Positions 8,003 to 63,942 of a stretch of DNA of 64,000 nucleotides are shown here, one piece after another. The notes under the pieces are model-generated. The model worked only from the letters and a program-made list of their open reading frames with translations, had not been told where the DNA came from and made no database searches. This stretch comes from Candidatus Nealsonbacteria bacterium (GTDB lineage Bacteria; Patescibacteriota; Minisyncoccia; Minisyncoccales; CAZKCU01). The position numbers and the translations under genes were made by a program. The first letter of the stretch is position 1. Every line of letters starts with the position of its first letter. The stretch lies in assembly GCA_047456305.1 (NCBI GenBank), contig CP179888.1:381307-445306 (forward strand), given 5' to 3'.

Positions 8003-8076
8003 TTTTGCTCAAAATCAATAGATTGAAAATTGGAACGTCGCGAAACTCGTGACTATTACGTAAGGTCGCGAGACAC

Positions 8077-8104
8077 CAAGCACATAACAAAGATTATGTG
8101 CTCG
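8077..8104. repeat. family-B hairpin (GAGCACATAA...TTATGTGCTC)
   Basis: CCAAGCACATAACAAAGATTATGTGCTCGG. Related copies lie at 29306-29332 and, degenerate, inside pgk at 43738-43769. Confidence 0.75.
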
Positions 8105-8158
8105 GATAAATGGTCGGCGCGACAGAAATAAATTATTAATTAATAATTCAGAAAATAA

Positions 8159-29140: not shown

Positions 29141-29189
29141 GGAACCGTTTGCTTCGCTCACTGTAATTTGCTCTGCAAATTAAAAAAAA
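29141..29189 (+). repeat. family-C/D element (short form)
   Basis: GGAACCGTTTGCTTCGCTCACTGTAATTTGCTCTGCAAATTAAAAAAAA. It is related to the copies at 33262-33317 (minus strand) and 40284-40424. Confidence 0.7.
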
Positions 29190-29342: not shown

Positions 29343-29366
29343 GTATAGATTTGTTAATATTGAATG

Positions 29367-29420
29367 ACGAAGAGAATTTCATTCTCTTCTTTACCTTCGC
29401 TTCCTTCGGAAGCTCGGTGT
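29367..29420 (+). repeat. family-A palindromic element, intergenic copy just upstream of hpf
   Basis: GACGAAGAGAATTTCATTCTCTTCTTTACCTTCGCTTCCTTCGGAAGCTCGGTGT. It artificially extends the hpf ORF at the 5' end. Confidence 0.8.
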
Positions 29421-29867
29421 ATGAAGATTATTATAAAAACGAAAAATATAAAACTAAACCGGCCCCTCAAGGATTATATTGAGGAAAAACTAAACTCTCT
29501 TGAAAAATTTTTAAAAACTTTTCAAAAGAAAATATATTATAATCATTTTTTTGGCAAAGGAAAGCCAAGAATTGAGGCCTGGGTAGAAATTGGGAAGGAA
29601 AGTTTACATCATCGAAAGGGGCCTGTTTTTCGGGCCGAAGTTCAAATGAGATTTCCGGGAATGAGTTTGAGAGCAGAAGCTGTTTCAAAAAATTTAAGAA
29701 CAGCTATAACCGAAGTAAAGGATGAATTACAGAGAGAATTTAAACAATATAAAGAAAAAATAACTTCTTTGGGCAAAAGAAAAACCAGGGCTCTAAAAAA
29801 AGACCTCCGTCTATCTCCTCAGGCGAGGTTTTATAGAAAGGGAAGAATAAGGGAAGAGGGAATATAG
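29421..29867 (+). CDS. hpf: ribosome hibernation-promoting factor / ribosome-associated inhibitor (HPF/RaiA family)
   Basis: MKIIIKTKNIKLNRPLKDYIEEKLNSLEKF... is typical of the family. The ORF-track start at 29364 lies inside a repeat, so ATG 29421 is preferred. Confidence 0.8.
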   Translation: MKIIIKTKNIKLNRPLKDYIEEKLNSLEKFLKTFQKKIYYNHFFGKGKPRIEAWVEIGKESLHHRKGPVFRAEVQMRFPGMSLRAEAVSKNLRTAITEVKDELQREFKQYKEKITSLGKRKTRALKKDLRLSPQARFYRKGRIREEGI

Positions 29868-33281: not shown

Positions 33282-33317
33282 TATTCACACACAGCAGTGA
33301 GGGCAGCTGACGGTTCC
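33262..33317 (-). repeat. family-C/D element (long form) between two operon genes
   Basis: Minus strand reads GGAACCGTCAGCTGCCCTCACTGCTGTGTGTGAATAGTGGGCAATTTGCTTCGCAAA. It contains the 22-nt core GCTGTGTGYGAAYAGTGGGCAA. Confidence 0.75.
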
Positions 33318-40283: not shown

Positions 40284-40424
40284 AACCGGTCGCTTTATCG
40301 CTCCCTGTAATTTGCTCGCAATTAAAATAACCGGTTCCCTGCTGTGTGCGAACAGTGGGCAATACAAACCAGTTGGGCTAACGCCCTCCTTGTAATTGCT
40401 CCGCAATTAAAAAAAATAAAAAAG
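40284..40424 (+). repeat. two adjacent family-C/D elements
   Basis: AACCGGTCGCTTTATCGCTCCCTGTAATTTGCTCGCAATTAAAAT followed by AACCGGTTCCCTGCTGTGTGCGAACAGTGGGCAA...CTTGTAATTGCTCCGCAATTAAAAAAAA. Confidence 0.75.
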
Positions 40425-41723: not shown

Positions 41724-41851
41724 TAAAAAAATGAATAGTCAAAGAGAACTCCGTTCTCTTTTCCATCTTCGTTTTAATAAATTAAAACTCGATGAATAAA
41801 AACTCGAGTTATAGTCAAAGAAGGTAAACCTTCTTTTTCATCTTCGTTTTT
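41724..41851 (+). repeat. tandem duplication of a hairpin unit related to family A
   Basis: ATAGTCAAAGAGAACTCCGTTCTCTTTTCCATCTTCGTTTT...AAAACTCGATGAATAA and ATAGTCAAAGAAGGTAAACCTTCTTTTTCATCTTCGTTTTT...AAAACTCGATGAATAA. Confidence 0.8.
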
Positions 41852-43477
41852 ATGAATAAAAACTCGATGAATAACGATATAATTTTTTTTGCTGAAACCA
41901 CTTTTCGTAATATCAGGAAAAAATTCGGCATAAAAACCGACGATAGACGTCGGCATATTTATGTTGTTGGGAAAACCGGTATGGGTAAAACAGTGATGAT
42001 GGAAAATATGGCAATCCAGGATATAAAGCAGGGCAAGGGAATTGCTTTTATTGATCCCCACGGAGAGGCTGCTGAAAACCTTTTAAATTTTATTCCTTCT
42101 GATCGAATTAATGATGTTATCTATTTTAATCCGGCTGATTTAAATTATCCCATCGCTTTTAATGTTATGGAAAAAGTTGATTTAGAGCATAGACATTTGG
42201 CGGCCTCGGGCCTAATGGGGGTTTTTAAAAAAATCTGGCCCGATGTCTGGTCAGCCAGAATGGAATATATTTTGAATAATTCCATTTTAGCTTTACTTGA
42301 ATATCCGGGCTCAACCCTGCTTGGAGTAAACCGAATGCTGGCTGATCCCGATTATCGAAAAAAAGTGGTGGAGAGGATCACTGACCCGGTGGTTAAAGCT
42401 TTTTGGATTACTGAATTTGCTCGTTACACCCAGAGATACGAAGTTGAGGCAACAGCTGCCATCCAGAATAAAGTTGGTCAGTTTATTTCCGCCCCTTTAA
42501 TTAGGAATATTATTGGTCAGGTTCAATCTTCGATTGATATGAGGAAAGTAATGGATGATGGCAAAATCTTAATTGCTAATATATCTAAAGGAAAGGTGGG
42601 AGAGGATAATTCCTTGCTTTTGGGAGCTCTTTTGATTACCAAAGTGCAGTTAGCTGCGATGTCAAGAGTAGATATGCCTGAAGAGCAGAGACGAGATTTC
42701 TTTTTATATGTTGATGAATTTCAGAACTTTGCCACTGAATCTTTTGTCAATATCTTATCTGAGGCAAGGAAATATAGGTTGTCTTTAGTTTTAGGGCATC
42801 AATACATTGCTCAGATGGAAGAAAAGGTAAGAGATGCTGTTTTCGGCAACATTGGAACAATAGTTTCTTTTAGAGTTGGAGCTGAAGATGCTGAATATCT
42901 GGAAAAAGAATTTGTTCCTGAATTTACAGCTACTGACTTAGTTAATCTTGGAAAATATAATATCTATTTGAAATTAATGATTGATGGAATAGCCGGCAGA
43001 CCTTTCTCGGCTGAAACCTTGCCTCCAATGTTAAAACCGGAGAAATCGAATCGAGAGAAGATTATTAAAGTTTCCCGCGAAAGATATGGGACTCCTCGGC
43101 AAGTTGTTGAGGAAAAAATTAAGCGCTGGATAGGAACTTTAGAATTTCCGGTTAGTCCCCAGTCCGTCTCCCCGGTTCTTTATGATGCCAAATGTTCTCT
43201 CTGCGGAAAATGGACCAAGGTTGTTTTTCCTCCTGATGGGGTCCGGCCGGTTTATTGTAAACCCTGCCGAAAAAAAATGGAAAGAGAGAAGGAACAAAGA
43301 GAAAATGGAGTTATTTCCCTGAAAGAGGCAACTAAAAAAGAGCCTGTTTCTTTTTTGCCCTCAAAAAAAACTTTCGGGCGAGAAAAAACTGAAAAAGAGA
43401 AAAAAAGAAAAACCGTTAACTTAGAAGAATTAAAAAAAACCCTGGAAGAATCCCTGAAAAAAAGAAAAAAGCAATAA
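41852..43477 (+). CDS. TraD/VirD4-like (type IV coupling protein / HerA-FtsK superfamily) P-loop ATPase with a C-terminal zinc ribbon
   Basis: Walker A VVGKTGMGKT, Walker B FFLYVDEFQNF, LVLGHQY, and C-terminal CSLCGKWTKVVFPPDGVRPVYCKPCRKK. Confidence 0.7.
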   Translation: MNKNSMNNDIIFFAETTFRNIRKKFGIKTDDRRRHIYVVGKTGMGKTVMMENMAIQDIKQGKGIAFIDPHGEAAENLLNFIPSDRINDVIYFNPADLNYPIAFNVMEKVDLEHRHLAASGLMGVFKKIWPDVWSARMEYILNNSILALLEYPGSTLLGVNRMLADPDYRKKVVERITDPVVKAFWITEFARYTQRYEVEATAAIQNKVGQFISAPLIRNIIGQVQSSIDMRKVMDDGKILIANISKGKVGEDNSLLLGALLITKVQLAAMSRVDMPEEQRRDFFLYVDEFQNFATESFVNILSEARKYRLSLVLGHQYIAQMEEKVRDAVFGNIGTIVSFRVGAEDAEYLEKEFVPEFTATDLVNLGKYNIYLKLMIDGIAGRPFSAETLPPMLKPEKSNREKIIKVSRERYGTPRQVVEEKIKRWIGTLEFPVSPQSVSPVLYDAKCSLCGKWTKVVFPPDGVRPVYCKPCRKKMEREKEQRENGVISLKEATKKEPVSFLPSKKTFGREKTEKEKKRKTVNLEELKKTLEESLKKRKKQ

Positions 43478-44696: not shown

Positions 44697-45932
44697 ATGG
44701 AAATAAAAAATCTTAAAAAAGCAGCTGAGCGAATTTTAAAAGCGATAAAAAAGAAGGAAAAAATTATTATTTATGGTGATGCTGATTTAGATGGAGCAAC
44801 CTCGGTAATTATTTTAAAAGAAAGTATTCAAAATTTAGGCGGAGAGGTTTCGGCAATTTATTTTCCCGATCGAGAAAAAGAAGGATATGGGATAAATAAA
44901 ACAGCCCTTGATTTTTTAAAAACCATTAGTCCTGCTTTGTTGGTTGCCTTAGATTGTGGAATTGGGAATTTTGAGGAAGTGAAAATAGCTAAAACTTTAG
45001 GTTTTGAAGTAATAATTATTGACCATCATCAAATCTTAGATAAGTTACCTAAAGCCCAAATTATTGTTGATCCTAAACAAAAAGGAGATAAATATCCATT
45101 TAAAGGGCTAGCTACCGTAGGAATAATTTTTAGGCTTTCCCGACTTCTTTTAAAAGAAAAAATGTCAGAAGTAATGAGAAAAAATTTCTTGGAATTAGTG
45201 GCTTTGGGCACTATCGCCGATATGATGCCAGAAGAAAATGAAAATCAGCTTTTTATAACGGAGGGCTTAGAGTCATTAGAAAATTCCTGGCGACCAGGAA
45301 TTAAAGTATTTTTAAATAGCATCCCTTTTACTTTCCAAGAGAAAAAATATCCGAATTTCCGTCAGAAAATCTCTAAAATAATTTCTATTTTAAATGTCAG
45401 GGATATTGAGAATAAAATGCCAGCTTCATTTAGAGTTTTGGCAAGTTCCTCTTTGAAAGATGCAAAAAAGATTATCGAAAAACTTTTAAAGAAAAATGAA
45501 CTAAAAAAAGAAAAAATAAAGGAAATGATTCAGGAGGTCGAAGAAGATTTATTTTCTTCTTCCCCCTTCGCTGGCGCTCGGGAAACGGGCGATGAAGCTA
45601 AAGCTTCATCTTCACCCTTCGCTAACGCTCGGGTAAATGAAGAAATTATTTTTAAAGGAAAATCTAATTGGGAATTAATTTTACTCAGTCAGGTAGCTTC
45701 AATAATTTGTAATAAATATAAAAAACCTACTTTTCTTTTCAAAGAGGGAGAAACAAAGAGCCAGGGAACGGTAAGAATACCCAAGGGATTAGATGGAGTG
45801 AAGGCTATGATGAGTTGCCGTCAACTTCTGGAAACTTATGGAGGTCATCCTGCAGCTGCAGGTTTTTCATTAGAAAATGAGAATTTAGAAAAATTTAGAG
45901 AATGTCTAAATAAATATTTTAAAAAAATATGA
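44697..45932 (+). CDS. DHH/DHHA1 phosphoesterase, RecJ-like
   Basis: IIIYGDADLDGATS, VIIIDHH, GGHPAAAGF. Confidence 0.8.
   Translation: MEIKNLKKAAERILKAIKKKEKIIIYGDADLDGATSVIILKESIQNLGGEVSAIYFPDREKEGYGINKTALDFLKTISPALLVALDCGIGNFEEVKIAKTLGFEVIIIDHHQILDKLPKAQIIVDPKQKGDKYPFKGLATVGIIFRLSRLLLKEKMSEVMRKNFLELVALGTIADMMPEENENQLFITEGLESLENSWRPGIKVFLNSIPFTFQEKKYPNFRQKISKIISILNVRDIENKMPASFRVLASSSLKDAKKIIEKLLKKNELKKEKIKEMIQEVEEDLFSSSPFAGARETGDEAKASSSPFANARVNEEIIFKGKSNWELILLSQVASIICNKYKKPTFLFKEGETKSQGTVRIPKGLDGVKAMMSCRQLLETYGGHPAAAGFSLENENLEKFRECLNKYFKKI
45537..45638 (+). repeat. two adjacent family-A palindromic elements, in frame in the recJ-like gene
   Basis: GTCGAAGAAGATTTATTTTCTTCTTCCCCCTTCGCTGGCGCTCGGGAAAC and GGGCGATGAAGCTAAAGCTTCATCTTCACCCTTCGCTAACGCTCGGGTAAAT. 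They encode VEEDLFSSSPFAGARETGDEAKASSSPFANARVN. Confidence 0.9.
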
Positions 45933-46369
45933 AAAAAATAATAATTTATACCGATGGAGGATCTCGAGGCAATCCCGGGCCGGCAGCAATTGGATTTCTG
46001 TTTTGTAATGAAAAAGACCAAATTATTAAAAAATATTCTGAGTATCTTGGTACAGCTACTAATAATGAGGCTGAATATCAGGCAGTGATTTTTGCCTTAA
46101 AAAAATTTAAAGCTCTCTTTGGAAAAAAATTAGCCAAATCCTCAGAAATTGAATTAAGATTAGACTCCGAACTTTTAATAAAACAATTAAAGGGAGAATA
46201 TAAAGTTCTTGATTCAAAAATTCAGCTTTTATTCATTACCGTCTGGAATCTAAAGATTGATTTCAAAAAAGTTAAATTTAAACTTATTTCTCGCAACAAA
46301 AATAAAGAAGCTGACAAATTGGTCAATGAAGCTTTAGACTACAACCCACCCGCCACCCTCCCATTATAG
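45929..46369 (+). CDS. rnhA: ribonuclease HI family protein
   Basis: IIIYTDGGSRGNPGPAAIGF, TNNEAEYQAVIFAL, NKEADKLVNEAL. Confidence 0.85.
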   Translation: MKKIIIYTDGGSRGNPGPAAIGFLFCNEKDQIIKKYSEYLGTATNNEAEYQAVIFALKKFKALFGKKLAKSSEIELRLDSELLIKQLKGEYKVLDSKIQLLFITVWNLKIDFKKVKFKLISRNKNKEADKLVNEALDYNPPATLPL

Positions 46370-46457: not shown

Positions 46458-46460
46458 GAT

Positions 46461-46892
46461 GTCCCAGTAAGTCTGTAAGCCGAATTCTGTCTTGCCCTCC
46501 CAACTTTTGCCACGGGATTTCAAAAAAATCAGCAAATTCTTTGGCAAAAGTTAGGAGGGTGAAGTGATTATCTATCTAGGCCTGAGATTGCTCCCAGGCT
46601 CAAGCGAACTACTTTGAACCCTTTCAACTTTGCGTAAAAAGTTGCGGGGCTTTGTTCTTGCTCTTGGGCAGGAATTTAACCGTTTCACTCCCGGAGTTAC
46701 CTCCAGGATTCATCCAATTATTGGATGCCTCTTGTCTTACGATTTGAGGCGTCACTGTTCGCATCCCTCGTCTCGCGACGTACGGGTATTGCCCGTTACC
46801 ATTTTAACCAGTTTTAAAACTGGTAAGAGTTCGGACTTTCCTCCCCCTTTTTCTGATTAGAAAAAGAGAGCAATCACTCAACTTACAAGGAC
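46461..46892 (-). ncRNA. rnpB: RNase P RNA (bacterial type)
   Basis: The minus strand contains GGGGGAGGAAAGTCCGAACTC (the universally conserved GAGGAAAGUCC region) near the 5' end and ACAGAATTCGGCTTACAGAC (the ACAGAAnnCGGCUUA region) near the 3' end. P1 pairs GTCCTTGTAAGT at the 5' end with ACTTACTGGGAC at the 3' end. Confidence 0.9.
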
Positions 46893-52374: not shown

Positions 52375-54150
52375 ATGCTTATCACAGAAGGTAGAGCTAA
52401 CGGTAAATATATTTTAATCGTTGTTGTTTTAACTGCCATTGTTGGCGGAGGAGTTTGGTTATTAGCGAAACGAGACGTTCGTTTTACTGAATTTTCTGAG
52501 ATAAATAAACCAGAAGAAAATGGAATGGATGTTAATAATGAGATTAATATCCATGAATATCCGAGTGATAGCGAGCAATTTAGAAATCTGACTATAAAAT
52601 TTGTGAGAGAGATAGCTGAGAATTACTTTGATGAACAACTGATAAAATACCCGGAGGAATTAGGAATTAGAGGTAATTGGGTTCCTTATATAACCATATA
52701 TCATCAGGGAGAAATAAAAGGGCATGGGAAAGGAGAAAATGAAATATTATCTTTTGCTTTAGCTGAAGCAACAAAAGTTGCTTTTAGTGATGAGAGGTGC
52801 GAAAACTTAACTAAAAAAGATCTTAAGGATGTAATATTTTTGGTCAAATTTTTAATTCCTCCAAATCAGTTTTCTTTTGTAGAATATGACGGGAAAGGGA
52901 AAGAACTTGTTGGAGATTTAGTAGTAATCCGAAATTTAGACAAAGAGTTAATTCGTCAGAAAATTGAACAAGGAAAAGAATTTTTATACAGGGTAATGAA
53001 TAAAAATGAGTACGGTTTCTATAAAAAATATGATGCTCTAAATGATGATTTTGAAGATAGACTGCATACTGTATATTCTGCTTCAATTATATATACTTTT
53101 TTATACATTTATGATTTGGAAAAGGACGAGAAAATTTTAGAATACATACCCGATTGGGGCAACTTTCTTTTTTTCATGCAAAACAAAGATGAGGAAGATG
53201 AAAGGTACGGCGCCTTTCATTATTCTTACTATTTAGATAGCAAGGAACGAGAAAAGAAATTTGTAGTTGGGACAAGTGCATTAACTATATTTACATTATT
53301 AAGATTATATGATTTAACTAACGACTCAAAATACTTGGAATCTGCGAAATTGGCTGGTGATTGGTTAACTACAATGCAGAAACCAGATGGAAGCATAAGG
53401 TCCTATGTAAGATATTCAGATGGGCAATGGGTGTACGGTGATAAAGAATCCCTTCTTTACAACGGCCAGGTGCTTTCTGCTCTTTCTAAGCTTTTTCAAG
53501 CTACCGGAGATAAAAAGTATTACGATACTGCTGAAGGAATTGCAAAACTGTTCGTAGAGAAATATGAAAAAGAAAAAGGTTATATTAAAGGTGAATATCG
53601 AGAGAAAAATCCGATATCAAATTCTTGGGTAGTAATGTCATTAATGGATTTTTATAGAGTAAATCAAGCTGATTATTACAAAAACATAATTTTTGAACTA
53701 AGTGAAAAAATTTTAGAAAATCAAAAAAATGACATGAATAACCTTTTACATTATGGTGGCTGGGGTGAAGTGTATTCAACAAGTGGAATTGGTTGGATAA
53801 GTGAAGTGATGGTGGAAACATATATATTCTGCAAAGAATTCACCCCTACACCAAATTTTGGTGTGGGGGCAAGCAAAGAAGATTGTAATAAGTATAAAGA
53901 TTCTGCGATAAAGGCAATGAGATTACTTATTCAGAATACCTATTCAGAAGAAAACACCTTTTTTCTTAAAAATCCAAAAAGAGCAATGGGAGGTGTTTTT
54001 TGGAATGAACAAAATAAATATGTAAGAACTGATTCGGTATGTCATGCTTTAAATGGTTATGTCAGAATAATGAATGATTTAGAGGATGGATTATTACTTT
54101 CGGTTCCAGAGAAATCATTTGAAGCAATTTTAAATGAGCTTAAAAAATAA
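52375..54150 (+). CDS. hypothetical membrane-anchored protein with a probable (alpha/alpha)6-toroid-like repeat domain
   Basis: N-terminal TM helix. Repeated helical hairpins such as LTIFTLLRLYDLTNDSKYLESAKLAGDWLTTMQKPDGS. No confident family. Confidence 0.4.
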   Translation: MLITEGRANGKYILIVVVLTAIVGGGVWLLAKRDVRFTEFSEINKPEENGMDVNNEINIHEYPSDSEQFRNLTIKFVREIAENYFDEQLIKYPEELGIRGNWVPYITIYHQGEIKGHGKGENEILSFALAEATKVAFSDERCENLTKKDLKDVIFLVKFLIPPNQFSFVEYDGKGKELVGDLVVIRNLDKELIRQKIEQGKEFLYRVMNKNEYGFYKKYDALNDDFEDRLHTVYSASIIYTFLYIYDLEKDEKILEYIPDWGNFLFFMQNKDEEDERYGAFHYSYYLDSKEREKKFVVGTSALTIFTLLRLYDLTNDSKYLESAKLAGDWLTTMQKPDGSIRSYVRYSDGQWVYGDKESLLYNGQVLSALSKLFQATGDKKYYDTAEGIAKLFVEKYEKEKGYIKGEYREKNPISNSWVVMSLMDFYRVNQADYYKNIIFELSEKILENQKNDMNNLLHYGGWGEVYSTSGIGWISEVMVETYIFCKEFTPTPNFGVGASKEDCNKYKDSAIKAMRLLIQNTYSEENTFFLKNPKRAMGGVFWNEQNKYVRTDSVCHALNGYVRIMNDLEDGLLLSVPEKSFEAILNELKK

Positions 54151-54207
54151 AGATATAGCGAATAACAGGGTGGGGCTATGTCCAGAATACGAGTAGTTAA
54201 GCAAGAA

Positions 54208-54231
54208 GCCCATCGCTGGGTGATTTTTTTT
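54208..54231 (+). terminator. intrinsic terminator
   Basis: GCCCA-tcgc-TGGGT followed by T8. It shares the 15-nt string AAGCCCATCGCTGGG with the terminator at 2523. Confidence 0.5.
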
Positions 54232-54365
54232 CGGCCTTGACTTTTTCCTGAATTGTTATTAAGATATAAAATCACGAGAGACGAAGGAGGACGGTATGGG
54301 AAGTGCCTTAAAAAGTGAATATGGATTAAAACAAAAAGACAGAATTAAAAAAAAGGAGGTAACAA

Positions 54366-56318
54366 ATGAAAAGGAAGACAGCTTTTCAAAAGATCATTGA
54401 CAGTCATCTGGTAAAGATCCTTCCTGACGGAGGGATGGTTTTGAAGCTAGACTGGGTTTGGGGACATGAGATTACCACACCGAACGCCATAATAGACATG
54501 AAAGTACGAGGATGTGAAGCCGTTTTCGATCCTAACAAGATTAAGATGATGATTGATCATGTTAACCCGCCCAAAGACACAGCTTCGGCTATTCAAGCCG
54601 AAATCGTCCGTAAATGGAGCGAAGCCCACGGTATCGAGTTTCTCGATGTCGGACGTAACGGTGTATGCCACGCTATTATTCCGGAAAAGGGATGGATACT
54701 CCCTGGTCAGATTGGTATTATGGGCGACAGTCACACCTGCACACATAGCGCTTTCTGCGCTTTCACGGCAGGAGTTGGTACGACAGAACTCGAAAACGGT
54801 ATTATTACTGGTCTTTGGATCTGTCCGTCACAGAAAGTCATCCGCGTTAATTTCACTGGCAAATTGCCGGCAAATGTTTTTGCAAAGGATCTTATTCTGG
54901 CGCTCATTGCGAAGATCGGCGTCAAGGGTGCGACTAACGCAGTGCTCGAATTCGATGGCCCTGTAATTACAGACATGACCATGGAAGGCAGAATGACAAT
55001 CGCCAACATGTCAGTAGAAGCTGGAGCCACATCAGGCATGATGATGGTTGATAAAAAGACCATAGATTATCTGTATCCGATTTTAGATAAAATGTTCCAT
55101 GATGGTTCCCTGGGAGATATAAATCTTGAAGAATGGGACAGTGATTCGGATGCGGAGTATGATCGGGTTATCGAGATTGATGTTTCTAATATGGTTCCAG
55201 TCATTACGGATAAATATTCACCTGGCGATGTTGTGAAGGTTTCCGAACTTGTCGGCAAACGGGTCAATCAGGTTTATATCGGTTCATGCACGAATGGCAG
55301 AATCGAAGATCTGAGGATAGTGGCCAGCATTTTCCGTCAGGTAGGCGCCAGGGTAGCGGACAATTTACGTTGTATAGTTGTTCCCGCCACCCAGTACATC
55401 TACGAGAGGGCGCTTCAGGAAGGAATAATCGAGACTTTCGTAAAAGCTGGATGTTTCGTAAGCGGACCAACCTGTGGTGCATGCCTTGGTATGAGCTGCG
55501 GTGTTATTGCTCCCGGAGAGGTATGCGTTTCCACTACGAACCGCAATTTTCCCGGACGTATGGGCAAAGGCGGAATGGTGCATTTAACATCTCCGGCAAC
55601 AGCAGCCCTTACTGCTCTTAAGGGTGAGATCGCTGAACCGACAATTAAGATGTGCGAGCGTACACTCAATGATTGTTCCGTCATTGTTCCACCTAAAAGG
55701 GAGGCTATTCAGTTGTCGGGATGGGGAAAAACGGAATCAAAACGACCCGAATACAGCAACCTTTTAAGCCTTATCGGCGGAGGACAGCATAAGGATTTTT
55801 CAGGAAAGGTGTTCTATTTACCCGTTGACAATGTTGATACCGACCAGATTATTCCAGCCAAGTATTTGACTGAGACAAAAAAAGAAGAGTTTGGCAAACA
55901 CTGCCTTGAGGATGCTTCGATATCTTCCGAGGACAGACCAAAGCTTTTCCAGTCACAGATAATCGTAGCTGGCGATAATTTCGGTTGTGGCTCTTCAAGG
56001 GAGCACGCACCATGGGCATTAGAAGGAGTCGGCATCAGGTGTGTCATTGCTCCGAGCTTTGCGCGCATCTTTGAGAACAATATGTTCGCGAATGGGCTTC
56101 TTTGTATCACCTTTCCGAAGGAAACGATAGAATTTCTTTTTGATGAAAAGCCTGAAGAACTCTCGGTCGACTGGGAAAAAGGCATTGTGAAGTGGGATAC
56201 CAATGGTGACGCCAGCTTCGAGATTTCAGACTACCAAAAAGAGCTAATCAAGAAAGGTGGAAGCGTCGGCATTATGCTTAAACTCGCCGCAGATCTGCAG
56301 GCAGAAGGTAAAATATAG
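54366..56318 (+). CDS. fused aconitase-family dehydratase, large + small subunit (LeuC-LeuD / homoaconitase-like)
   Basis: N-terminal part: GHEITTPNAI, MGDSHTCTHSAFCAF, GSCTNGRIEDL, GPTCGACLGM, STTNRNFPGRMG. C-terminal part: NVDTDQIIPAKYL, GDNFGCGSSREHAPWAL. A strong SD (AAGGAGGT) lies 8 nt upstream. Confidence 0.88.
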   Translation: MKRKTAFQKIIDSHLVKILPDGGMVLKLDWVWGHEITTPNAIIDMKVRGCEAVFDPNKIKMMIDHVNPPKDTASAIQAEIVRKWSEAHGIEFLDVGRNGVCHAIIPEKGWILPGQIGIMGDSHTCTHSAFCAFTAGVGTTELENGIITGLWICPSQKVIRVNFTGKLPANVFAKDLILALIAKIGVKGATNAVLEFDGPVITDMTMEGRMTIANMSVEAGATSGMMMVDKKTIDYLYPILDKMFHDGSLGDINLEEWDSDSDAEYDRVIEIDVSNMVPVITDKYSPGDVVKVSELVGKRVNQVYIGSCTNGRIEDLRIVASIFRQVGARVADNLRCIVVPATQYIYERALQEGIIETFVKAGCFVSGPTCGACLGMSCGVIAPGEVCVSTTNRNFPGRMGKGGMVHLTSPATAALTALKGEIAEPTIKMCERTLNDCSVIVPPKREAIQLSGWGKTESKRPEYSNLLSLIGGGQHKDFSGKVFYLPVDNVDTDQIIPAKYLTETKKEEFGKHCLEDASISSEDRPKLFQSQIIVAGDNFGCGSSREHAPWALEGVGIRCVIAPSFARIFENNMFANGLLCITFPKETIEFLFDEKPEELSVDWEKGIVKWDTNGDASFEISDYQKELIKKGGSVGIMLKLAADLQAEGKI

Positions 56319-56331
56319 AAAGGAGAAAGAT

Positions 56332-57489
56332 ATGATAGAAAAAAGAATTGCATTAGTACTGGGAGACGGTTCGGGGCCAGAAATGATGAAATTTGCATGT
56401 GCAATTGCCATCGAAGCGGCCAAGAAAGACGGGATAGAGATTGTTTTTGAAGAAACACCGATGGGATGGAATGCCTACGAAAAGTATGGCGATACCCTTC
56501 CGCAGGAATCATTTAAGAGAGCGGTTGATATCGGCATCATATTTTTCGGTGGCGTTGGCGACCCGAAATTCGACAATACCATCGGCGCGAAAAAACCAGA
56601 GATGAAACCCGAAGCAAGAGCATTGCTCTCTTTGAGGAGTAATATGGGACTTCTTCTAAACTTCCGTCCCATGATCTACTACAAAGCGCTCGCTCATCTC
56701 GCGAACGTGAAACCCGAAACGATACCGGACGAAGGAATCCAGCAGATCTGGATACGCTTTCTTCTCGAAGATAGTTACTTTGGTAATCAGGATTTCATCG
56801 ACGATATCCCAGCTGAAGTGAATAAGAAGCTTGGAATAAAGCTGAAGAAAGAGATAACCGGCAATGAGGAAATCGTGACCGATATCGCTTACTTTCGCAA
56901 GAGTACGGTCGAAAAATATCTGAGATCGGCCTTCTCTTATGCCCGGGATATAAAACTGCCTCTCATTTCGATCGACAAAGCTAACGTCATGGCGCGGTAT
57001 GATTTCTGGAGGAAGGTTGCGACAAAAATTGGAAGAGACGAATTTCCTGATGTTCCACTTATTCATCAGTATGTTGATTCAGCTAACGCTCTTCTCTTTA
57101 CCCCCGCGAAACTTCACGGCGTGATTGCATGCGGGAACGAACATGGCGATATTCTTTCTGATGGCGCGGCTGTTGCTCTCGGAAGTATGGGAATGATGTG
57201 TTCATCGGCCATCAATCCTGATACTGGCGCGGCCATGTTCGAAAGCGGTGCCGGAACAGCTCCTACACTAGCCGGACAGGATAAAGCGAATCCTTTAGGT
57301 CGTATTCTCACTGCCGCCATGATGCTCAGGCACATCGGTGCAGTGAATGGCGCAAGTGCGATTGAAACAGCAGTTAATAAGGTCTTGCAGGACGGCTATC
57401 GCACGAGTGATCTTTTCTGCGCTACCGACGACCCTAAAAAACTTCTAGGAACTTCGGAGATGGGAGAAATAGTTCTTTCTTATATGTGA
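56332..57489 (+). CDS. isocitrate/isopropylmalate dehydrogenase-family protein (LeuB-like, divergent)
   Basis: IALVLGDGSGPEMM, FFGGVGDPKFD, NEHGDILSDGAAVALGSMGM, DKANPLGRILTAAMML. The start ATG 56332 is preceded by AAGGAG (the ORF-track start at 56257 overlaps the upstream gene). Confidence 0.82.
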   Translation: MIEKRIALVLGDGSGPEMMKFACAIAIEAAKKDGIEIVFEETPMGWNAYEKYGDTLPQESFKRAVDIGIIFFGGVGDPKFDNTIGAKKPEMKPEARALLSLRSNMGLLLNFRPMIYYKALAHLANVKPETIPDEGIQQIWIRFLLEDSYFGNQDFIDDIPAEVNKKLGIKLKKEITGNEEIVTDIAYFRKSTVEKYLRSAFSYARDIKLPLISIDKANVMARYDFWRKVATKIGRDEFPDVPLIHQYVDSANALLFTPAKLHGVIACGNEHGDILSDGAAVALGSMGMMCSSAINPDTGAAMFESGAGTAPTLAGQDKANPLGRILTAAMMLRHIGAVNGASAIETAVNKVLQDGYRTSDLFCATDDPKKLLGTSEMGEIVLSYM

Positions 57490-57513
57490 ATCTCATTAAA
57501 CGATGATGTGAAA

Positions 57514-57550
57514 GGCGCTAACAATTCAATGTTAGCGCCATTTCTTTTTT
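57514..57550 (+). terminator. intrinsic terminator after the LeuB-like gene
   Basis: GGCGCTAACA-attcaa-TGTTAGCGCC is a 10-bp stem, followed by ATTTCTTTTTT. Confidence 0.8.
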
Positions 57551-57850
57551 ATTGACTAGAGTTGCTTTGTAATAATTCTGTTGATTATTGTAAAATTAAC
57601 TTGGGATATTGGATTATTTCTAACCAGTTCATTTTTCTAAAATCGTCTAATAATCCTAAACGAACAGAATTATGCTCGGTTCTTGTGACCGAGCCGCCTC
57701 AATTTATCGCCAAGCCCGCCCAAGTTTTTGGAAAAAAATTTAGGTGGGCAAAAGGGTGGTTTTTTAAAGCTGTTTAGGTTCATATAGTATAAACCTGGGC
57801 CAGTATAATTTTTTGACTTTTTTTACAGATATAATATAATATAAGGTATT

Positions 57851-59854
57851 ATGGCCGCCAACCTACTTAAACAACTATTAACTTCTATTCATTTGTATTA
57901 TGATTTAGGCTCAGCTTCTCTACGGGCGCGAGCCGTAGGTGAAATTATTGCAAAGGTACTTTTTGTCAAAAATGGACGGGGACTTATGTTTGAAGAAATC
58001 GCTGAAGAGGTAGCTCATCTGGTTGAGGTTAAAAAAATGCCAAAAGATGATATTTTAGAGGGGCTCGAATTTTTAAGAGATAAGGAAGCTGTAATTTGGC
58101 AGGAATCAACAGACCGGTGGCTTTTAACAAATAAAGCAATAGAGCAAATAGACAATGATTTAAGAAACAGCCAATTGAGGACTAAAAAGATTTTAGAGAA
58201 TTATTTTAGCAGAAAAATTGATTACAAAAGACTGGTTGAATGGTTTAGGTCCGCCTGTGCAGATTTTTTTGGTGCTTACGGTGAAATATGGGTGAAGACC
58301 ATTTATTGTAAGAAAATAGTTGAATTACCAGCAAGAAGCTTTTTAGAAAAAATACTTTCTCATTCAATTAAGAAATGCGGTTTGGAATCTTATTCAAAGG
58401 AGCTTCTAACTGCTTTCCGTCAGTTTTTGCTAAGTTCTAATGAGCAGATAAATACAGCCCAGATTTGGTCATATGCCCAAGCTATGCTTTCTGCAAAATT
58501 AGTAGTTGCCGGTGTAGGACCAGATCCAATGGCAATTAATAAATTTAGAGGCGGACAACTATTTTTTGATACAAATATGTTGTTTGGGATAGTATTGAGG
58601 GAGGATCCTAACGACAAAAGGTTTGTCGGCATAGCTGAATCCTTAAAAGACATAGGAGTTTCTTTACGTATTACTAAGAGAACAAAGGAAGAATACGATA
58701 CTGTAGTAAAGAGGGAGAGAGAAAAATTAATAAAGCTCCTGAAAATTTTGCCCAAGAAAACTTTCAGAGAAGTAATGAAGGATTCGAGAGACCAATTTGC
58801 TTTAGTAGCAATTGCAAGAAATTATGATACCGTAAGAGATTACAAAGCCTTTTTTGAAGAAATTAAAAATCCTCCTACCAGAATGGGAAATCTTAAAATC
58901 AAGATGGAGGATAATCCAGAAATTGATAAAGTAGTCAAGGAAAGTGAAAATTATACAGAAAGGCAGAGGGAGATAGAAAAAGAATGGTTAAAGTATTATT
59001 CCTGGCCAAAACGAAAAAGTTCTATTAACCACGATGTGGCTTTAGATGCCGTTGTTGATTTTCTACGGAAAAGTAATCCAAAAACCTGGATTCTAACAGC
59101 CGATCGATCTATGCAGAGTCTTTCGCGGAAGTGGTCTATCACTTATTTTCCAGCATGGCTTTCATTGGGCACAATGATCCAATTATTGGCAATTTATGAT
59201 ACTGGTCCCAAGTATGATCCATATAATTTTGCTCCTCTGCTCAGTAAATTGATTGAGGCGGAAATTCAAGTTACAGAAGACTTGTATATGGTTGAAGATG
59301 TTATTGAGCTTATTGATATTGAGGAAAGGTCTAAAGAATTGTCAAAGGAAGAGATTAAGGCCTTGGCCAATAAGATTGCTAGGGCACGCATGCTTGGTAA
59401 ATCAAGATATGACAGAGAATTAGCTTTGGATATTAAAAGAGTCTTACAACGGAAAAAGATTATAAAAGAGGAGCAGATTCAGCAGATGGAACAGAGAACA
59501 GTGAATTTGGAAGAAGAGCTTACTCAGGAGCACAAAAAGAAAAATGCTTTTTTTGCAGCTTTAGTCAAAAAATTAGCAAGCAAAAAGAGGCAACAGGAAA
59601 GAATTAAGTACATATTAATATTTATTCTTCTTTTGATAGTAGGAGTGTTAATTATGCTTTTGGGTTTTTACTTATGGAAAAGGAAAGGCAATATAAATAT
59701 AGGAATTATGTGTCTTGGTCTCGGCTTAACAGAAATTATTTTACCAACTTTAAAATGGATATTTCCAAAATATAAAGAGGTTGGAAGAAAAGCAGAAGAG
59801 TGGGCAAGAGATCAGGCACTCCATTTAGCAAACCGGGAAAAAAAGCAAGACTAA
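57851..59854 (+). CDS. membrane-tethered PIN-like nuclease-domain protein (N-terminal wHTH-like, C-terminal coiled coil + 2 TM)
   Basis: PIN-like acidic quartet candidates: LFFDTNMLFG, ITKRTKEEY, NHDVALDAVV, WILTADRSM. Coiled coil at about aa 520-590. TM helices YILIFILLLIVGVLIMLLGFYLW and IGIMCLGLGLTEIILP. Confidence 0.5.
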   Translation: MAANLLKQLLTSIHLYYDLGSASLRARAVGEIIAKVLFVKNGRGLMFEEIAEEVAHLVEVKKMPKDDILEGLEFLRDKEAVIWQESTDRWLLTNKAIEQIDNDLRNSQLRTKKILENYFSRKIDYKRLVEWFRSACADFFGAYGEIWVKTIYCKKIVELPARSFLEKILSHSIKKCGLESYSKELLTAFRQFLLSSNEQINTAQIWSYAQAMLSAKLVVAGVGPDPMAINKFRGGQLFFDTNMLFGIVLREDPNDKRFVGIAESLKDIGVSLRITKRTKEEYDTVVKREREKLIKLLKILPKKTFREVMKDSRDQFALVAIARNYDTVRDYKAFFEEIKNPPTRMGNLKIKMEDNPEIDKVVKESENYTERQREIEKEWLKYYSWPKRKSSINHDVALDAVVDFLRKSNPKTWILTADRSMQSLSRKWSITYFPAWLSLGTMIQLLAIYDTGPKYDPYNFAPLLSKLIEAEIQVTEDLYMVEDVIELIDIEERSKELSKEEIKALANKIARARMLGKSRYDRELALDIKRVLQRKKIIKEEQIQQMEQRTVNLEEELTQEHKKKNAFFAALVKKLASKKRQQERIKYILIFILLLIVGVLIMLLGFYLWKRKGNINIGIMCLGLGLTEIILPTLKWIFPKYKEVGRKAEEWARDQALHLANREKKQD

Positions 59855-59940: not shown

Positions 59941-60228
59941 GTGATTATGGCCAACTTTGTTATAAAAAAAGATGGGACAAAGGAACCCTTTGATGCTGAA
60001 AAGATTAGAAGAGCAATTACAGGTGCTGCCCAAAGAACTAATCTTCCAGAAGAGCGAAAAAAAGAGGTAGTAGAACAGGTTTTAAATACAGCACTACAAT
60101 TAGCGAGAGAGAAAGAGGAGATAGCAACTTCAGAGCTTAAAGAAAAAATTCTTAGTGAGTTAGATGCTATTGAACCTTCTATTTCAGAGACCTGGAGAAA
60201 CTACGCTCAAGAGAAAGGCGGGGTTTAA
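59941..60228 (+). CDS. stand-alone ATP-cone domain protein
   Basis: VIKKDGTKEPFDAEKIRRAITGA...EIATSELKEKILSEL matches the ATP-cone pattern. ATG 59947 is the likely start. Confidence 0.7.
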   Translation: MIMANFVIKKDGTKEPFDAEKIRRAITGAAQRTNLPEERKKEVVEQVLNTALQLAREKEEIATSELKEKILSELDAIEPSISETWRNYAQEKGGV

Positions 60229-60248
60229 TACAGAATATTTTTTCACTT

Positions 60249-60304
60249 ACCCGAGCCGCAGGCGAAGGGCGAAGGGTGAAGAAAAGGACGAAGTCCTCTT
60301 CGCC
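60249..60304 (-). repeat. family-A palindromic element, intergenic, reverse orientation
   Basis: Plus strand reads ACCCGAGCCGCAGGCGAAGGGCGAAGGGTGAAGAAAAGGACGAAGTCCTCTTCGCC, the reverse complement of the hairpin + CTTCGC...GGCTCGGGT architecture. Confidence 0.8.
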
Positions 60305-60475
60305 TTTCCAATATAGGTTTTGAAATTGTCCAGTCATACTGGAGTCCCGGCTCGCGAGCTTCGCTCGCGGGCTTTTAAAATAAGTAAAAATTTGTAATAA
60401 TGATTAGACGAACTTATGTGAGAAGAAATTAAAAAAAATGACTAGTACTTTGTGATTTATTTGTAAGATAAACTC

Positions 60476-61192: not shown

Positions 61193-62096
61193 AAAGAAAT
61201 TTGGTCAGGTAAATTATTGGCAGATTGACCACGAGGTCAAAAATATTTTTGAGATAGGAGGAGTAACCATTTTACCAAGTTCCGAAGCTTGGCAGAAATT
61301 TGCTTGGACAAGAAAATTTTTCGGAGAAAAACCAAAAGAAGGATACTTTATTTGGGTCAAAAGAAAAATAGATTTCCCCTTGGCTACTTGTATCACTATT
61401 GCCTCACCAAAAATTTCCCAGGATTTAAGAAATTTATTAGTGATTGAAAAAAATATCAAAGCCAGAGCCAATGTAATTTGTAATGCTAAAGAGAGATTTC
61501 TTTGTGGTAAACATTTAGCCAGAGGAAAACTTATTCTCAAAGAGGGAGTTTTTTTAGAATATAATCATATTCATAAATGGGGCGAGAAAGATAATGTTCA
61601 GCCGGATTATGAATTTACTTTGGAGAAAGGCGCTCGTTTAATTTATAATTATCGAAATTTATTTCCTCCAGAAAATTTGGAGTTCAAGACCACAATTCAT
61701 AGTGGGGAAAATACCTCCTCAAATTTAAATTTTATTATTAATTCTTTAAATTCCAAAACAAAGGTAAAAGATACTGTTTTTTTAGAAGGCAAAAATTCTC
61801 AGACAGTTGTTAGATTAAGATTAGTTGGAAGAAAAAAGAGCCAGATTGAGGCAATTAGTCAGATTTTTGCCTTCTCGCCAGGAAAAGGACATTTGGATTG
61901 TCAGGGATTGTTGGTCGACAAAACTGCCAAAATTTCTTTGATTCCTCAATTAGTTTGCCAAAACAAGAAAGCTCAAATTACTCATGAAGCCTCAATTGGA
62001 AAAATTTCAGAAGAAGAATTAACTTATTTGAGGATGAGGGGATTGACTGAAAAGGAGGCGATAGATTTAATTGTCAGTGGATTTTTAAAAGCATGA
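61146..62096 (+). CDS. SufB/SufD-family Fe-S assembly protein
   Basis: The C-terminal SufBD signature is GHLDCQGLLVDKTAKISLIPQLVCQNKKAQITHEASIGKISEEELTYLRMRGLTEKEAIDLIVSGFL. The start is uncertain (overlaps sufC). Confidence 0.8.
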   Translation: MTMKNVKNVYPPKFPEKKFGQVNYWQIDHEVKNIFEIGGVTILPSSEAWQKFAWTRKFFGEKPKEGYFIWVKRKIDFPLATCITIASPKISQDLRNLLVIEKNIKARANVICNAKERFLCGKHLARGKLILKEGVFLEYNHIHKWGEKDNVQPDYEFTLEKGARLIYNYRNLFPPENLEFKTTIHSGENTSSNLNFIINSLNSKTKVKDTVFLEGKNSQTVVRLRLVGRKKSQIEAISQIFAFSPGKGHLDCQGLLVDKTAKISLIPQLVCQNKKAQITHEASIGKISEEELTYLRMRGLTEKEAIDLIVSGFLKA

Positions 62097-63415
62097 AAAA
62101 TTTAAGTAAAAGGAAAATTGTGGTTGCAATGTCTGGTGGGATAGATAGTTTCGTGGCGGCAACCCTTTTGAAAAGAGTTGGAGTCGATGAACTTCGTTCA
62201 TCTTCACGCACGAGCTCGTTAGAGCGAGTAAGAAAGAATTTTAATTCTTTCGGCTTCGCTAACGCTCGCGTTTTTGTCGATGAACTTCGTTCATCTTCAC
62301 GCTTCGCTAACGCTCGCGTTTTTGTCGATGAACTTCGTTCATCTTCACGCTTCGCTAACGCTCGCGTTTTTGATGTGGTGGGAGTTTTTATGAAACTTAC
62401 TGATCTGCCAAGGTTTAAAGAAAATGAAATGAGAGCTAAAAAAGTTGCTAAAATTCTGGGGATTCCGCTTTTAGTTTTAGATTTAAGAAGGGAATTTAAA
62501 GAAAGAGTTATTAATTTGTTTTTAAAAGAATATAAATTAGGACTAACTCCTAACCCTTGCATAGTCTGTAACAAAGAAATAAAATTTGGATTATTATTAG
62601 AAAAAGCTCTTTCTTTGAATGCAGACTGTATAGCTACTGGTCACTATGCAAGAATTCGAAAATTCGCTGTGTGTGAACAGTGGGCAAATTCGAAACGGAT
62701 TCGTTATTCGTTGATGACTGCTAAAGACAAAGAGAAAGACCAGTCTTATTTTTTATGGCAACTTAATCAAAAGCAATTAAAACATATTTTATTTCCCATC
62801 GGAGATTACACTAAAACTCAAGTTAGAATTATATCAAAAAAATTTAAATTGCCTGTTTTGAAAATTCCAGAATCTCAGGAAATTTGTTTTATTAAGACAA
62901 CTATAAATGATTTTTTAAAGAAATATCTCAAACCAAAACCCGGCCAAATTATTTACTCAACACCCAAGGTTAAGTATCGTGTAATTGGGCGACATCAAGG
63001 ATTAGCCTTTTATACTATTGGACAGCGAAAGGGGATAAAACTTCCCGGAGGACCATATTGGGTTTTGGATAAAGATTTGAAAAAGAATGCTTTAATTGTT
63101 ACCAAGAACGAAAAGGACTTATATAAAAAGGAATTGATTGCCAAGAAGGTTAACTGGATTTCTGGACTCCAACCCACCCTCCGCCCTCCCGCTCGCCAGA
63201 GGCGAGCGGGCCCCTGCCCCAAATTGCCATTAAAAATAAAGGCAAAAATTCGCTATCGTCACGAACCTGCTTCAGCCGTAATTACCCGAAGTTTAAAGTC
63301 TAAAGTTAGTTTAAGGTTTACTCAGCCCCAGCGGGCAATTACTCCTGGCCAGTCAGTAGTTTTTTACAAAGGTCAGGAAGTCTTGGGCGGAGGAGTAATT
63401 AGTGAGTCCTATTAA
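62093..63415 (+). CDS. mnmA: tRNA-specific 2-thiouridylase MnmA (about 80 aa longer than usual because of repeat insertions)
   Basis: PP-loop VVAMSGGIDSFVAA, TPNPCIVCNKEIKF, ATGHYAR, KDQSYFLW, ITPGQSVVFY...LGGGVI. Confidence 0.92.
   Translation: MKNLSKRKIVVAMSGGIDSFVAATLLKRVGVDELRSSSRTSSLERVRKNFNSFGFANARVFVDELRSSSRFANARVFVDELRSSSRFANARVFDVVGVFMKLTDLPRFKENEMRAKKVAKILGIPLLVLDLRREFKERVINLFLKEYKLGLTPNPCIVCNKEIKFGLLLEKALSLNADCIATGHYARIRKFAVCEQWANSKRIRYSLMTAKDKEKDQSYFLWQLNQKQLKHILFPIGDYTKTQVRIISKKFKLPVLKIPESQEICFIKTTINDFLKKYLKPKPGQIIYSTPKVKYRVIGRHQGLAFYTIGQRKGIKLPGGPYWVLDKDLKKNALIVTKNEKDLYKKELIAKKVNWISGLQPTLRPPARQRRAGPCPKLPLKIKAKIRYRHEPASAVITRSLKSKVSLRFTQPQRAITPGQSVVFYKGQEVLGGGVISESY
62183..62371 (+). 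repeat. three tandem family-A elements in frame in mnmA (the first carries a nested 45-nt insertion)
   Basis: GTCGATGAACTTCGTTCATCTTCACGCTTCGCTAACGCTCGCGTTTTT occurs at 62276-62323 and 62324-62371. Copy 1 (62183-62275) is interrupted by ACGAGCTCGTTAGAGCGAGTAAGAAAGAATTTTAATTCTTTCGG. Confidence 0.95.
62666..62687 (+). repeat. family-C core inside mnmA (in frame, AVCEQWAN)
   Basis: GCTGTGTGTGAACAGTGGGCAA. The same 22-mer, with 1-2 differences, occurs at 40341-40362 and on the reverse strand at 33274-33295. Confidence 0.8.
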
Positions 63416-63585
63416 AACAATTTCTATAAAAGGGAAAGACTCAACTTATATTATTGGAGGGAATAAAAATGGTTTAAATAAGAGATTTTTTGACTGTGGA
63501 TATTAAAACCTTGACAGACCATAGTTATGAATATATACTTATAACAGAAAGGTCGACTTTGTTTAAATTTAATTTTTAAAATACT

Positions 63586-63942
63586 ATGCCATTAGGAGAT
63601 AGAACAGGTCCAAGGGGACTTGGACCAATGACGGGAAGAGGATTAGGTTACTGCGCTGGCTATCCTTATCCTGGTTATCTGCACCCTTATGGATTTGGTC
63701 GGGGAAGAGGTTTTGGTCGAGGATGGGGCAGAGGATGGGGCAGAGGTTGGAGAGGGCCTGGTTGGTGGACGGTTCCACCTTATGACCTGGATTATCCTTA
63801 TTCACCTCAGTATCCTTTTCAACCACCAACACCAAAAGAAGAAAAAGGAATGCTAACAGAAGAACTGAAAGCATTGCGAGAAGAAATGAAAGCTATTGAA
63901 GAAAGAATGAAGGAATTAGAGACTAAGAAAAAGAAGAAGTAA
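63586..63942 (+). CDS. DUF5320-like protein with an RGW/RGF repeat and a C-terminal coiled coil
   Basis: The N-terminus MPLGDRTGPRGLGPMTGRGLGYCAGY is typical of DUF5320. It is followed by GRGRGFGRGWGRGWGRGWRG and EELKALREEMKAIEERMKELE. Confidence 0.6.
   Translation: MPLGDRTGPRGLGPMTGRGLGYCAGYPYPGYLHPYGFGRGRGFGRGWGRGWGRGWRGPGWWTVPPYDLDYPYSPQYPFQPPTPKEEKGMLTEELKALREEMKAIEERMKELETKKKKK

Follow-up and report, generated by a model that had tools for sequence, protein, structure and literature searches.

In a 64,000-nt stretch of a Candidatus Nealsonbacteria genome (contig CP179888.1, positions 381,307 to 445,306 of the forward strand; the window), the mnmA gene, which codes for a tRNA 2-thiouridine synthase, carries after its PP-loop a 189-nt array (62183-62371) of tandem copies of a short double-hairpin repeat, here termed family A. 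The array is a real, non-chance feature. With a probability of about 0.7, it represents tandem copies of a non-autonomous double-hairpin repeat of the Candidate Phyla Radiation (CPR, Patescibacteria) which is translated and tolerated in surface loops of its host proteins, similarly to the Rickettsia palindromic elements (RPE); the double-hairpin family of CPR bacteria is most likely selfish in nature.

The product of the host open reading frame (ORF) matches in Pfam the HUH, PRC-barrel and C-terminal domains, that is, all three MnmA domains, its closest solved relatives are MnmA structures, and it keeps the PP-loop SGGxDS and both catalytic cysteine motifs (NPC and EICF). The array consists of a split first unit followed by two units that are the same 48-mer, GTCGATGAACTTCGTTCATCTTCACGCTTCGCTAACGCTCGCGTTTTT, for which the chance expectation is 0 matches, and all of it is in frame with mnmA. 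The first unit is broken after base 27, so that a 5' half (62183-62209, hairpin 1 and TCTTCACGC) and a 3' half (62255-62275, TTCGCTAACGCTCGCGTTTTT) enclose a nested 45-nt piece (62210-62254). In unit 2, hairpin 1 is formed by GATGAAC/GTTCATC, and hairpin 2 by ACGC/GCGT around the loop TTCGCTAACGCTC. The codon GGA precedes the array, TTT GAT follows it, and no in-frame stop lies inside; the copy number of three was read from the assembled sequence alone. A preliminary description of this DNA had proposed three tandem units, one of them with a nested piece made of two small palindromes, in a protein of about 440 aa, and all of this was confirmed, including the identity of the 48-mers and the presence of both palindromes. 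It had also counted 63 extra codons between residues that are adjacent in MnmA. The adjacency stands, since LLKRVG runs directly into FDVVGVFMK in solved MnmA structures and in the closest relative recovered, L001, but the final TTT of the array is the host Phe codon and the net gain over the empty allele is therefore 186 nt, or 62 codons.

From 5' to 3', a family-A element comprises a G[GT]CGA[AT]GAA end, a hairpin 1 of variable stem, a TCTTC linker, and a stem of 3-4 bp around an invariant loop (CTTCGCTnnCGCTCG), in the arrangement (C)TTCGCTnnCGCTC(G). The basic unit has 45 nt, the period of the mnmA array is 48 nt, and 133 of 137 short-form copies have one of these two lengths. Both stems carry compensatory changes, with 89% of cells paired in the covariation analysis, and the covariation score of 0.291 compares with 0.081 in shuffles (0/500 reach the observed value) and with at most 0.086 when the partners are slid. 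Single units have folding z-scores of -2 to -4, and their GC content of 0.45-0.53 exceeds that of the window (~0.35). The ends, G[GT]CGA... and ...TCGSG, have only CGA/TCG in common, and no convincing terminal inverted repeat was found at them. Most copies are flanked on both sides by (G)TA and accompanied by an imperfect direct repeat of ~10 nt, TAnnYGAWG; the mnmA copies are without these TA flanks. No Rfam match was obtained at the elements, either in the window at the gathering threshold or in 62000-63500 at E <= 1.

The nested 45-nt piece is not a special case, the 90-93-nt composite form being found also at many unrelated loci. The nested module pairs with the conserved loop of its host unit to give a single long hairpin (-31.4 kcal/mol as RNA, z -3.2), and its own two hairpins have compensatory variants at other loci, with GCTCGTTAGAGC, CCCCGTTAGGGG and GCCCGTTAGGGC at one hairpin and, at the other, AAAGAATTTTAATTCTTT, AAAGAACTTTAGTTCTTT and AAAGAGCGGTAGCTCTTT. 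The minus strand of 62201-62260 scores weakly as family A with the covariance model (15.2 bits, E 0.007), and the nested piece resembles an inverted family-A-like module, which would either propagate together with its host unit or target that exact position.

Family A is not confined to mnmA. The window matches the core CTTCGCTNNCGCTCG 8 times where 0.25 matches are expected, and a census with a covariance model built from 56 family-A copies gives 8 coding and about 4 non-coding copies, roughly one per 5 kb. The in-frame hosts in the window are MnmA, MurB, a DHH protein and a helix-turn-helix (HTH) protein, and ten further hosts were scanned: topoisomerase I (TopA), FolD, GpsA, UvrB, TsaD, SerRS, a class-I aminoacyl-tRNA synthetase, CTP synthase, IF-2 and GluRS. 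The host genes have no relation to one another and are essential. A scan of one genome per species with the core pattern yielded ~60 loci in low-GC CPR genomes (Nealsonbacteria, Paceibacter, Parcubacteria, Minisyncoccales and assemblies labelled Saccharibacteria), and a metagenome scan for the mnmA subfamily at least 120 loci. Matches in high-GC genomes (Actinomycetes, Thermoleophilia and others) were rejected as family members and treated as chance because they are without hairpin 1. The viral contigs scanned for the core gave one chance match, likewise without hairpin 1, and no sign of a phage vector. A protein-database search with the concatenated element peptides returned one weak match; the query is short and of low complexity, and word filtering was probably at work. 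A full-text literature search found no description of such elements in CPR.

The relation of the copies to reading frames is strongly asymmetric. Among 149 distinct copies, 74 are read in sense phase 0 of a long ORF, two in the other open sense phase, which is hydrophobic, 12 in frame 4, the only antisense frame that is open in the mnmA unit, and nine in other antisense frames (3 and 5), while 52 have no long ORF through them; phase 0 thus accounts for 74 of the 97 intragenic copies. This favoured phase is open, stop-free and hydrophilic (..DE..SSS.FA.AR..), and such a bias is the pattern that a filter for translated, tolerable peptides would produce. The occurrence of copies in both orientations and between genes indicates a repeat at the DNA level rather than a sense-RNA device.

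The mnmA site itself is highly polymorphic. Four close relatives carry 0 (L001), 1 (L002), 2 (L142) and 3 units (the window); the three full-length genes with 0, 1 and 3 units are ~96.5% identical in DNA and the two-unit contig is near-identical. Compared with the empty-site gene, that of the window has 213 extra nt, 186 at the array and 27 at a GC-rich site further downstream. When 121 MnmA proteins were aligned and scored at the site after G30 (window 62182/62183), 30 held family A, nine unrelated short inserts and 82 nothing; a single unit is present in 28 of the family-A orthologs, two units in one and three in the window, and eight represent the long form. On a core-column tree of the orthologs, at least 20 gains or losses of family A are required, and near-identical ortholog pairs differ in its presence, yet private variants (an AGC first codon, an AKAR variant) are common within clades. 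The peptide at the site is near-invariant in the 30 orthologs, (V/G/S)DELRSSSRFANARV, and in seven orthologs, picked by protein similarity only, codon identity in same-amino-acid pairs reaches 94% within the element, compared with 52% over 40 codons of the flanks. The possibility raised beforehand that these residues form an ancient conserved domain with no repeat at the nucleotide level did not materialise: the peptide is found in 30/121 orthologs, but with the nucleotide-level repeat structure, and it is absent from the closest relative.

Comparison of filled and empty alleles revealed that a patch of 3' flanking sequence travels with the element. TTTGAT is invariant in 7/7 filled orthologs compared, the empty alleles having TTCGAGGCAATA, TTTGAGGTAAGA or TTTTAGTGTGAT, and conservation stops at the element and these two following codons. 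Substitutions cluster beside the indel in three independent pairs of a filled and an empty allele, which share 96-99% identity elsewhere: 5/12 nt in the first pair, 7/16 nt in the second and, in the third, 14 of all 22 mismatches, which fall between about 50 nt on the 5' side of the indel and 17 nt on its 3' side. Such patches make the turnover look like allelic replacement by homologous recombination and not like transposition or excision in situ. Empty sites differ from the filled flanks, and a clean target duplication was not found. In one locus, L110, a diverged copy of the mnmA 5' end (90 nt) and a family-A unit are followed by the ATG of a complete empty-site mnmA (L110:90-330). A fusion of this kind is also seen in the proteins P0022, P0023, P0032, P0054, P0076, P0088 and P0115, where the P0022 group has MAKVVVAMS-PKESLRLPTGQA-GG... 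ahead of a full N-terminus. These fused 5' copies may be relics of partial recombination or of a rescue after a disruptive insertion, or else assembly chimeras.

Taken together, these data suggest the following course of events. Family A would survive mainly as in-frame, stop-free inserts that add a short hydrophilic peptide to loops of housekeeping proteins, where they would be translated and harmless. At the mnmA site the element would be an old, recurrent polymorphism, inherited vertically within clades, and filled and empty alleles would be swapped between strains by homologous recombination. The number of tandem copies probably shifts by slippage between the ~10-nt imperfect direct repeat at the ends of the element (TAnnYGAWG), formed by its own 5' end and a similar sequence after its 3' end; slippage is the simplest account of the array, because the 48-nt period includes the host TTT and the series of 0, 1, 2 and 3 units fits it.

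Regarding the protein, the array site falls between helix 17-27 (alpha-1, after the PP-loop) and strand 94-101 (beta-2). Two other inserts are present in the same gene, a family-C core, which lies at the tip of a beta-hairpin, and a GC-rich insert in a loop of the C-terminal barrel. All three insert types fall between predicted secondary-structure elements, and they largely match the residues (30-70, 192-198 and 358-372) for which an AlphaFold2 model built on the 121-sequence alignment has a pLDDT (predicted local distance difference test) below 50; in a Foldseek search of the PDB the model matches MnmA structures with E about 1e-25. The family-C and GC-rich inserts are each missing from or different in one or both close relatives: the GC-rich one is missing from L002 (a net 45 nt relative to it) and has a shorter, diverged version in L001. 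Both had been placed beforehand, the core at 62666-62687 and the hairpin at 63168-63222; they do exist, but the core has 21 nt and ends earlier, and the GC-rich insert and its hairpin have other limits (Table 1). The tolerance of so many inserts, seen beforehand as unusual for mnmA, is not so within the group, as such inserts are common in CPR MnmA. The nine unrelated inserts at the alpha-1/beta-2 junction are four of the FALRQAQGNPEQRRR type, three of the PAPEQARYGVN type, one of 26 aa and one of 7 aa. Recurrent insert sites are also observed elsewhere in MnmA (TTI|NDFLKKYL, YRV|IGRH and NWIS|G..PKLPL), and several repeat families thus use a few hot spots in CPR MnmA.

Several observations weigh against the reading of family A as a translated, tolerated repeat. 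Its persistence at one site across orthologs 55-70% identical, with near-frozen synonymous sites, exceeds what is expected of a neutral insert, so that an added assumption is needed: the hairpins and loop would have to be constrained, or the copies would have to evolve in concert. Neither a convincing terminal inverted repeat nor a clean target duplication was found in the 64-kb window and the loci of up to 14 kb covered, and no transposase domain is present among the ORFs scanned in them, a genome-wide transposase search not having been made. A target preference for GAW (Asp/Glu) codons could be a partial source of the phase bias, and translation of the insert is deduced from sequence alone. 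The AlphaFold model is poor (mean pLDDT 66, template modelling score 0.29-0.35 to MnmA structures), too poor to place the inserts relative to the tRNA, so that surface exposure and distance from the tRNA and ATP sites follow from the Rossmann-type topology only. In addition, the nearly invariant SGGxDSS motif is altered by an S20F replacement, and the function of the window allele is not assured. This replacement (SGGIDSF at 62144-62152, TTC instead of TCG) is observed in the window MnmA, while SGGxDSS is present in at least 90% of the 121 orthologs, including the two closest relatives; the allele carrying it may be impaired in function.

It can also be envisaged, although this is considered unlikely, that family A is a homing-like or drive element, a protein-less parasite whose invariant loop and hairpins help the DNA bearing them to be imported or recombined. 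The double hairpin would be recognised by a cell function, such as DNA uptake or a protein of recombination or repair, and would spread between orthologous sites, the alpha-1/beta-2 loop of mnmA among them, in CPR lineages by transformation and homologous recombination, together with a patch of flanking codons and without a transposase. The patch of flanking substitutions in 3/3 filled/empty pairs does resemble a co-conversion tract, but such tracts should end variably and the conserved one stops almost exactly where the element and TTTGAT do; moreover, an old polymorphism in any recombining population is equally expected to show recombination patches. The same explanation would account for the presence of the element at one mnmA site in scattered lineages, for a nucleotide conservation far above that of the flanks, and for L110, in which a foreign mnmA 5' fragment with its element is fused upstream of a complete empty-site mnmA. 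The family is, however, also found in many unrelated genes, and it must therefore insert de novo as well. Natural competence has been reported in Saccharibacteria, which are members of the CPR (PMC10187176), but in contrast to DNA uptake sequences (DUS/USS) the family-A core, with 8 matches in 64 kb, is not seen apart from full elements, and these, about 12 per 64 kb, are far sparser than known uptake sequences.

A signal beneficial to the host at the nucleic-acid level, for instance a hairpin for mRNA stability, pausing or processing, or a site bound by a protein, within coding DNA, is a distinctly improbable alternative. Covarying stems with an invariant 13-nt loop, conserved synonymous sites and retention of the element within clades are what such a signal would show, and some copies do lie at gene ends or leaders. 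The presence of the element nevertheless varies between genes 96-99% identical, its copy number ranges from 0 to 3, both orientations relative to the host gene occur, the hosts are functionally unrelated and there is no Rfam match.

The preliminary description had left a choice between strong insertion pressure with tolerance in loops and removal of the elements before the protein folds. The former agrees with the dispersal of the family, the 45- or 48-nt lengths, the single phase and the loop positions, while removal prior to protein synthesis, through excision from the RNA or bypass by the ribosome, has very little to commend it and gave no intron, ribozyme or bypass signature. Strong hairpins are present at the site and an essential enzyme tolerates many inserts, as removal would allow; but 74/76 sense-strand intragenic copies share one codon phase and 133/137 short-form copies are 45 or 48 nt long, and neither bias would matter for an element that is removed. 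Differently from self-splicing introns, inteins and programmed bypass, each unit adds 15-16 aa without a stop and matches no ribozyme or intron family in Rfam at E <= 1; the array lies inside an uninterrupted ORF without matched take-off and landing codons (GGA against TTT GAT), and antisense copies are likewise in an open frame. Furthermore, genes whose PP-loop is interrupted by another repeat family carry a duplicated intact N-terminus, which suggests that insertions there are disruptive and not spliced out. Finally, an ordinary protein-level motif or lineage-specific MnmA loop, kept for the function of its peptide and locally duplicated in tandem, is barely credible despite the near-invariant peptide in 30 orthologs, given that conservation is as strong at synonymous as at non-synonymous sites, the stems covary, the DNA element also occurs in unrelated proteins, in antisense and between genes, the closest relative is without it, and nine orthologs hold unrelated inserts at the same site.

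Among known repeats, RPE, reportedly described by Ogata et al. in 2000 (Science) and 2002 (Genome Res), provide the closest parallel. They have been reviewed (PMC10969869), and like them family A is palindromic, multi-copy and non-autonomous, with a stable hairpin supported here by folding and covariation. Both occur as in-frame inserts in housekeeping genes unrelated to one another, in a bacterium with a reduced genome; a single reading frame gives a conserved peptide (74/97 intragenic copies of family A in phase 0), copies are also found outside genes and no transposition mechanism is established. Family A differs in its size (45-51 nt, the composite having 90-93 nt, whereas RPE have about 100-150 bp), in its CPR/Patescibacteria instead of Rickettsiales host, in its two small hairpins with an invariant loop and frequent tandem arrays, and in occupying one site across deeply diverged orthologs; it is set apart from RPE-1 to RPE-10 by size and host, not by sequence comparison.

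Similarities are also seen with the double-hairpin elements of mitochondria, which are tiny (about 30-80 nt) repeats, richer in G+C than the A+T-rich compact genomes that they inhabit, and which invade both intergenic and coding DNA with short TA/TAG-like flanking repeats. To our knowledge, no transposase is known for them. Together with GC clusters and other repetitive hairpin-forming elements they have been documented in fungal and sponge mitochondrial DNA (for example, PMC2800124). Family A shares with them two adjacent small hairpins and a GC content (0.45-0.53) above that of its surroundings, but it resides in a bacterial genome (class-A RNase P RNA, tRNAs, murB and suf genes) and not in an organelle, and it is strongly biased to one translated frame. 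With the repetitive extragenic palindromes (REPs), their mosaic assemblies (BIMEs) and IS200/IS605-derived repeats it has in common short hairpins without long terminal inverted repeats, in which structure and not stem sequence is conserved. REPs are extragenic, have a GTAG head and are associated with a tyrosine (HUH) transposase (RAYT), whereas about two thirds of the family-A copies (97/149) lie inside long ORFs and have no GTAG head. Correia elements and other bacterial MITEs (transposable elements of the miniature inverted-repeat type) are likewise small and non-autonomous, and TA (GTA) stands at both ends of most family-A copies; the mnmA copies, however, are without it, and the terminal inverted repeats of classical MITEs, with a length of at least about 10 bp, are missing. 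We know of no insertion sequence that could be the parent of family A. No features matching CRISPR repeats, integron attC sites or repeats of diversity-generating retroelements were seen, nor any matching archaeal bulge-helix-bulge introns, the organism being bacterial.

Table 1. Location of the repeats and inserts in the window
Feature	Position	Strand	Remarks
mnmA (tRNA 2-thiouridine synthase) ORF	62093-63415	+	440 aa; Pfam, structure and motif matches
Unit 1, long (composite) form	62183-62275	+	93 nt
Nested 45-nt module in unit 1	62210-62254	+	two own hairpins, GCTCGTTAGAGC and AAAGAATTTTAATTCTTT
Unit 2	62276-62323	+	48 nt, peptide VDELRSSSRFANARVF
Unit 3	62324-62371	+	identical to unit 2; last codon TTT is the host Phe codon
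3' flanking patch TTTGATGTGGTG	62369-62380	+	travels with the element; filled versus empty allele comparison
Family-C 21-nt core GCTGTGTGTGAACAGTGGGCA in mnmA	62666-62686	+	in frame (AVCEQWA); absent from L002
GC-rich insert in mnmA	63167-63217	+	in frame; perfect 10-bp hairpin 63188-63210
Family-A copy in DeoR-type HTH protein (ORF 4980-5723)	5478-5525	+	in frame
Two identical 51-nt family-A units in murB (ORF 28163-29068)	28778-28879	+	in frame, within MurB_C domain
Weak family-A-like copy, 5' end or leader of S30AE/HPF gene (ORF 29364-29867)	29361-29422	+	covariance model
Two degenerate AT-rich family-A-like copies, intergenic	41732-41797, 41808-41860	+	75-nt repeat
Two diverged 51-nt family-A units in DHH/DHHA1 protein (ORF 44697-45932)	45537-45638	+	in frame
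Family-A copy, intergenic, directly after small ATP-cone ORF (59947-60228)	60246-60310	-	covariance model

Some of the copies outside mnmA have particular surroundings. In the S30AE/HPF ORF, the Pfam domain begins only at residue 22. The degenerate copies in 41732-41874, with their 75-nt period, retain CTTCG...CTCG and have the palindrome TTTTAATAAATTAAAA in place of the loop; they lie just upstream of a gene for a TraG/VirD4-like coupling protein (41852-43477), whose called start they overlap. Downstream of the ATP-cone ORF and its minus-strand family-A copy, a terminator-like GC hairpin, CGCGAGC TTC GCTCGCG, is followed by TTTT (60348-60380). The family-C core has two more copies in the window, both intergenic, at 33275-33295 (-) and 40341-40361 (+); they sit just upstream of genes, beside hairpins of the AATTTGC..GCAAATT type, which are seen at 29157-29186, 40301-40330 and 40386-40415 as well, and may be part of a composite intergenic repeat or regulatory motif.

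A GC-rich segment at 46337-46362, 88% identical to the beginning of the GC-rich insert in mnmA (63165-63190), makes up the C-terminal end of an RNase H-like ORF (45929-46369), just before the gene for a bacterial class-A RNase P RNA (46460-46889, minus strand). The latter has 430 nt for a 367-position model (119 bits, cut-off 100) and may also carry insertions. Higher G+C (0.44-0.48 against ~0.35 for the window) characterises 8001-10000 and 54001-58000, which contain a 667-aa protein with a peptidoglycan-binding domain (8159-10162) and aconitase with isocitrate/isopropylmalate dehydrogenase (54366-57489), respectively; these regions may derive from lateral acquisition or from many GC-rich inserts. 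Next to mnmA, a DUF5320 protein (63586-63942) has a GRGWGRGWGRGW repeat, encoded by a 12-nt tandem repeat (63719-63750), and a Lys/Glu-rich tail. In some relatives, a NifU-like gene upstream of mnmA (L227:1-1023; L230/L231:1-258) contains, according to precomputed Pfam matches, an intein with a LAGLIDADG endonuclease, that is, another type of in-frame selfish element in the same operon as mnmA.

If family A is indeed a translated and tolerated repeat, selfish palindromic DNA inside genes would not be a curiosity of Rickettsia but would be widespread in the CPR, which holds a large share of bacterial diversity in tiny, gene-dense genomes. Many unexplained short inserts in CPR proteins would then be accounted for, and there would be consequences for gene calling, the alignment of protein families, structure prediction and the way CPR metagenomes are assembled. 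Since copy number and presence of the element vary between strains 96-99% identical, it may also provide population markers. How a 45-nt element for which no enzyme is known stays almost unchanged across lineages in which the synonymous sites of the host genes are saturated is a puzzle that these genomes pose.

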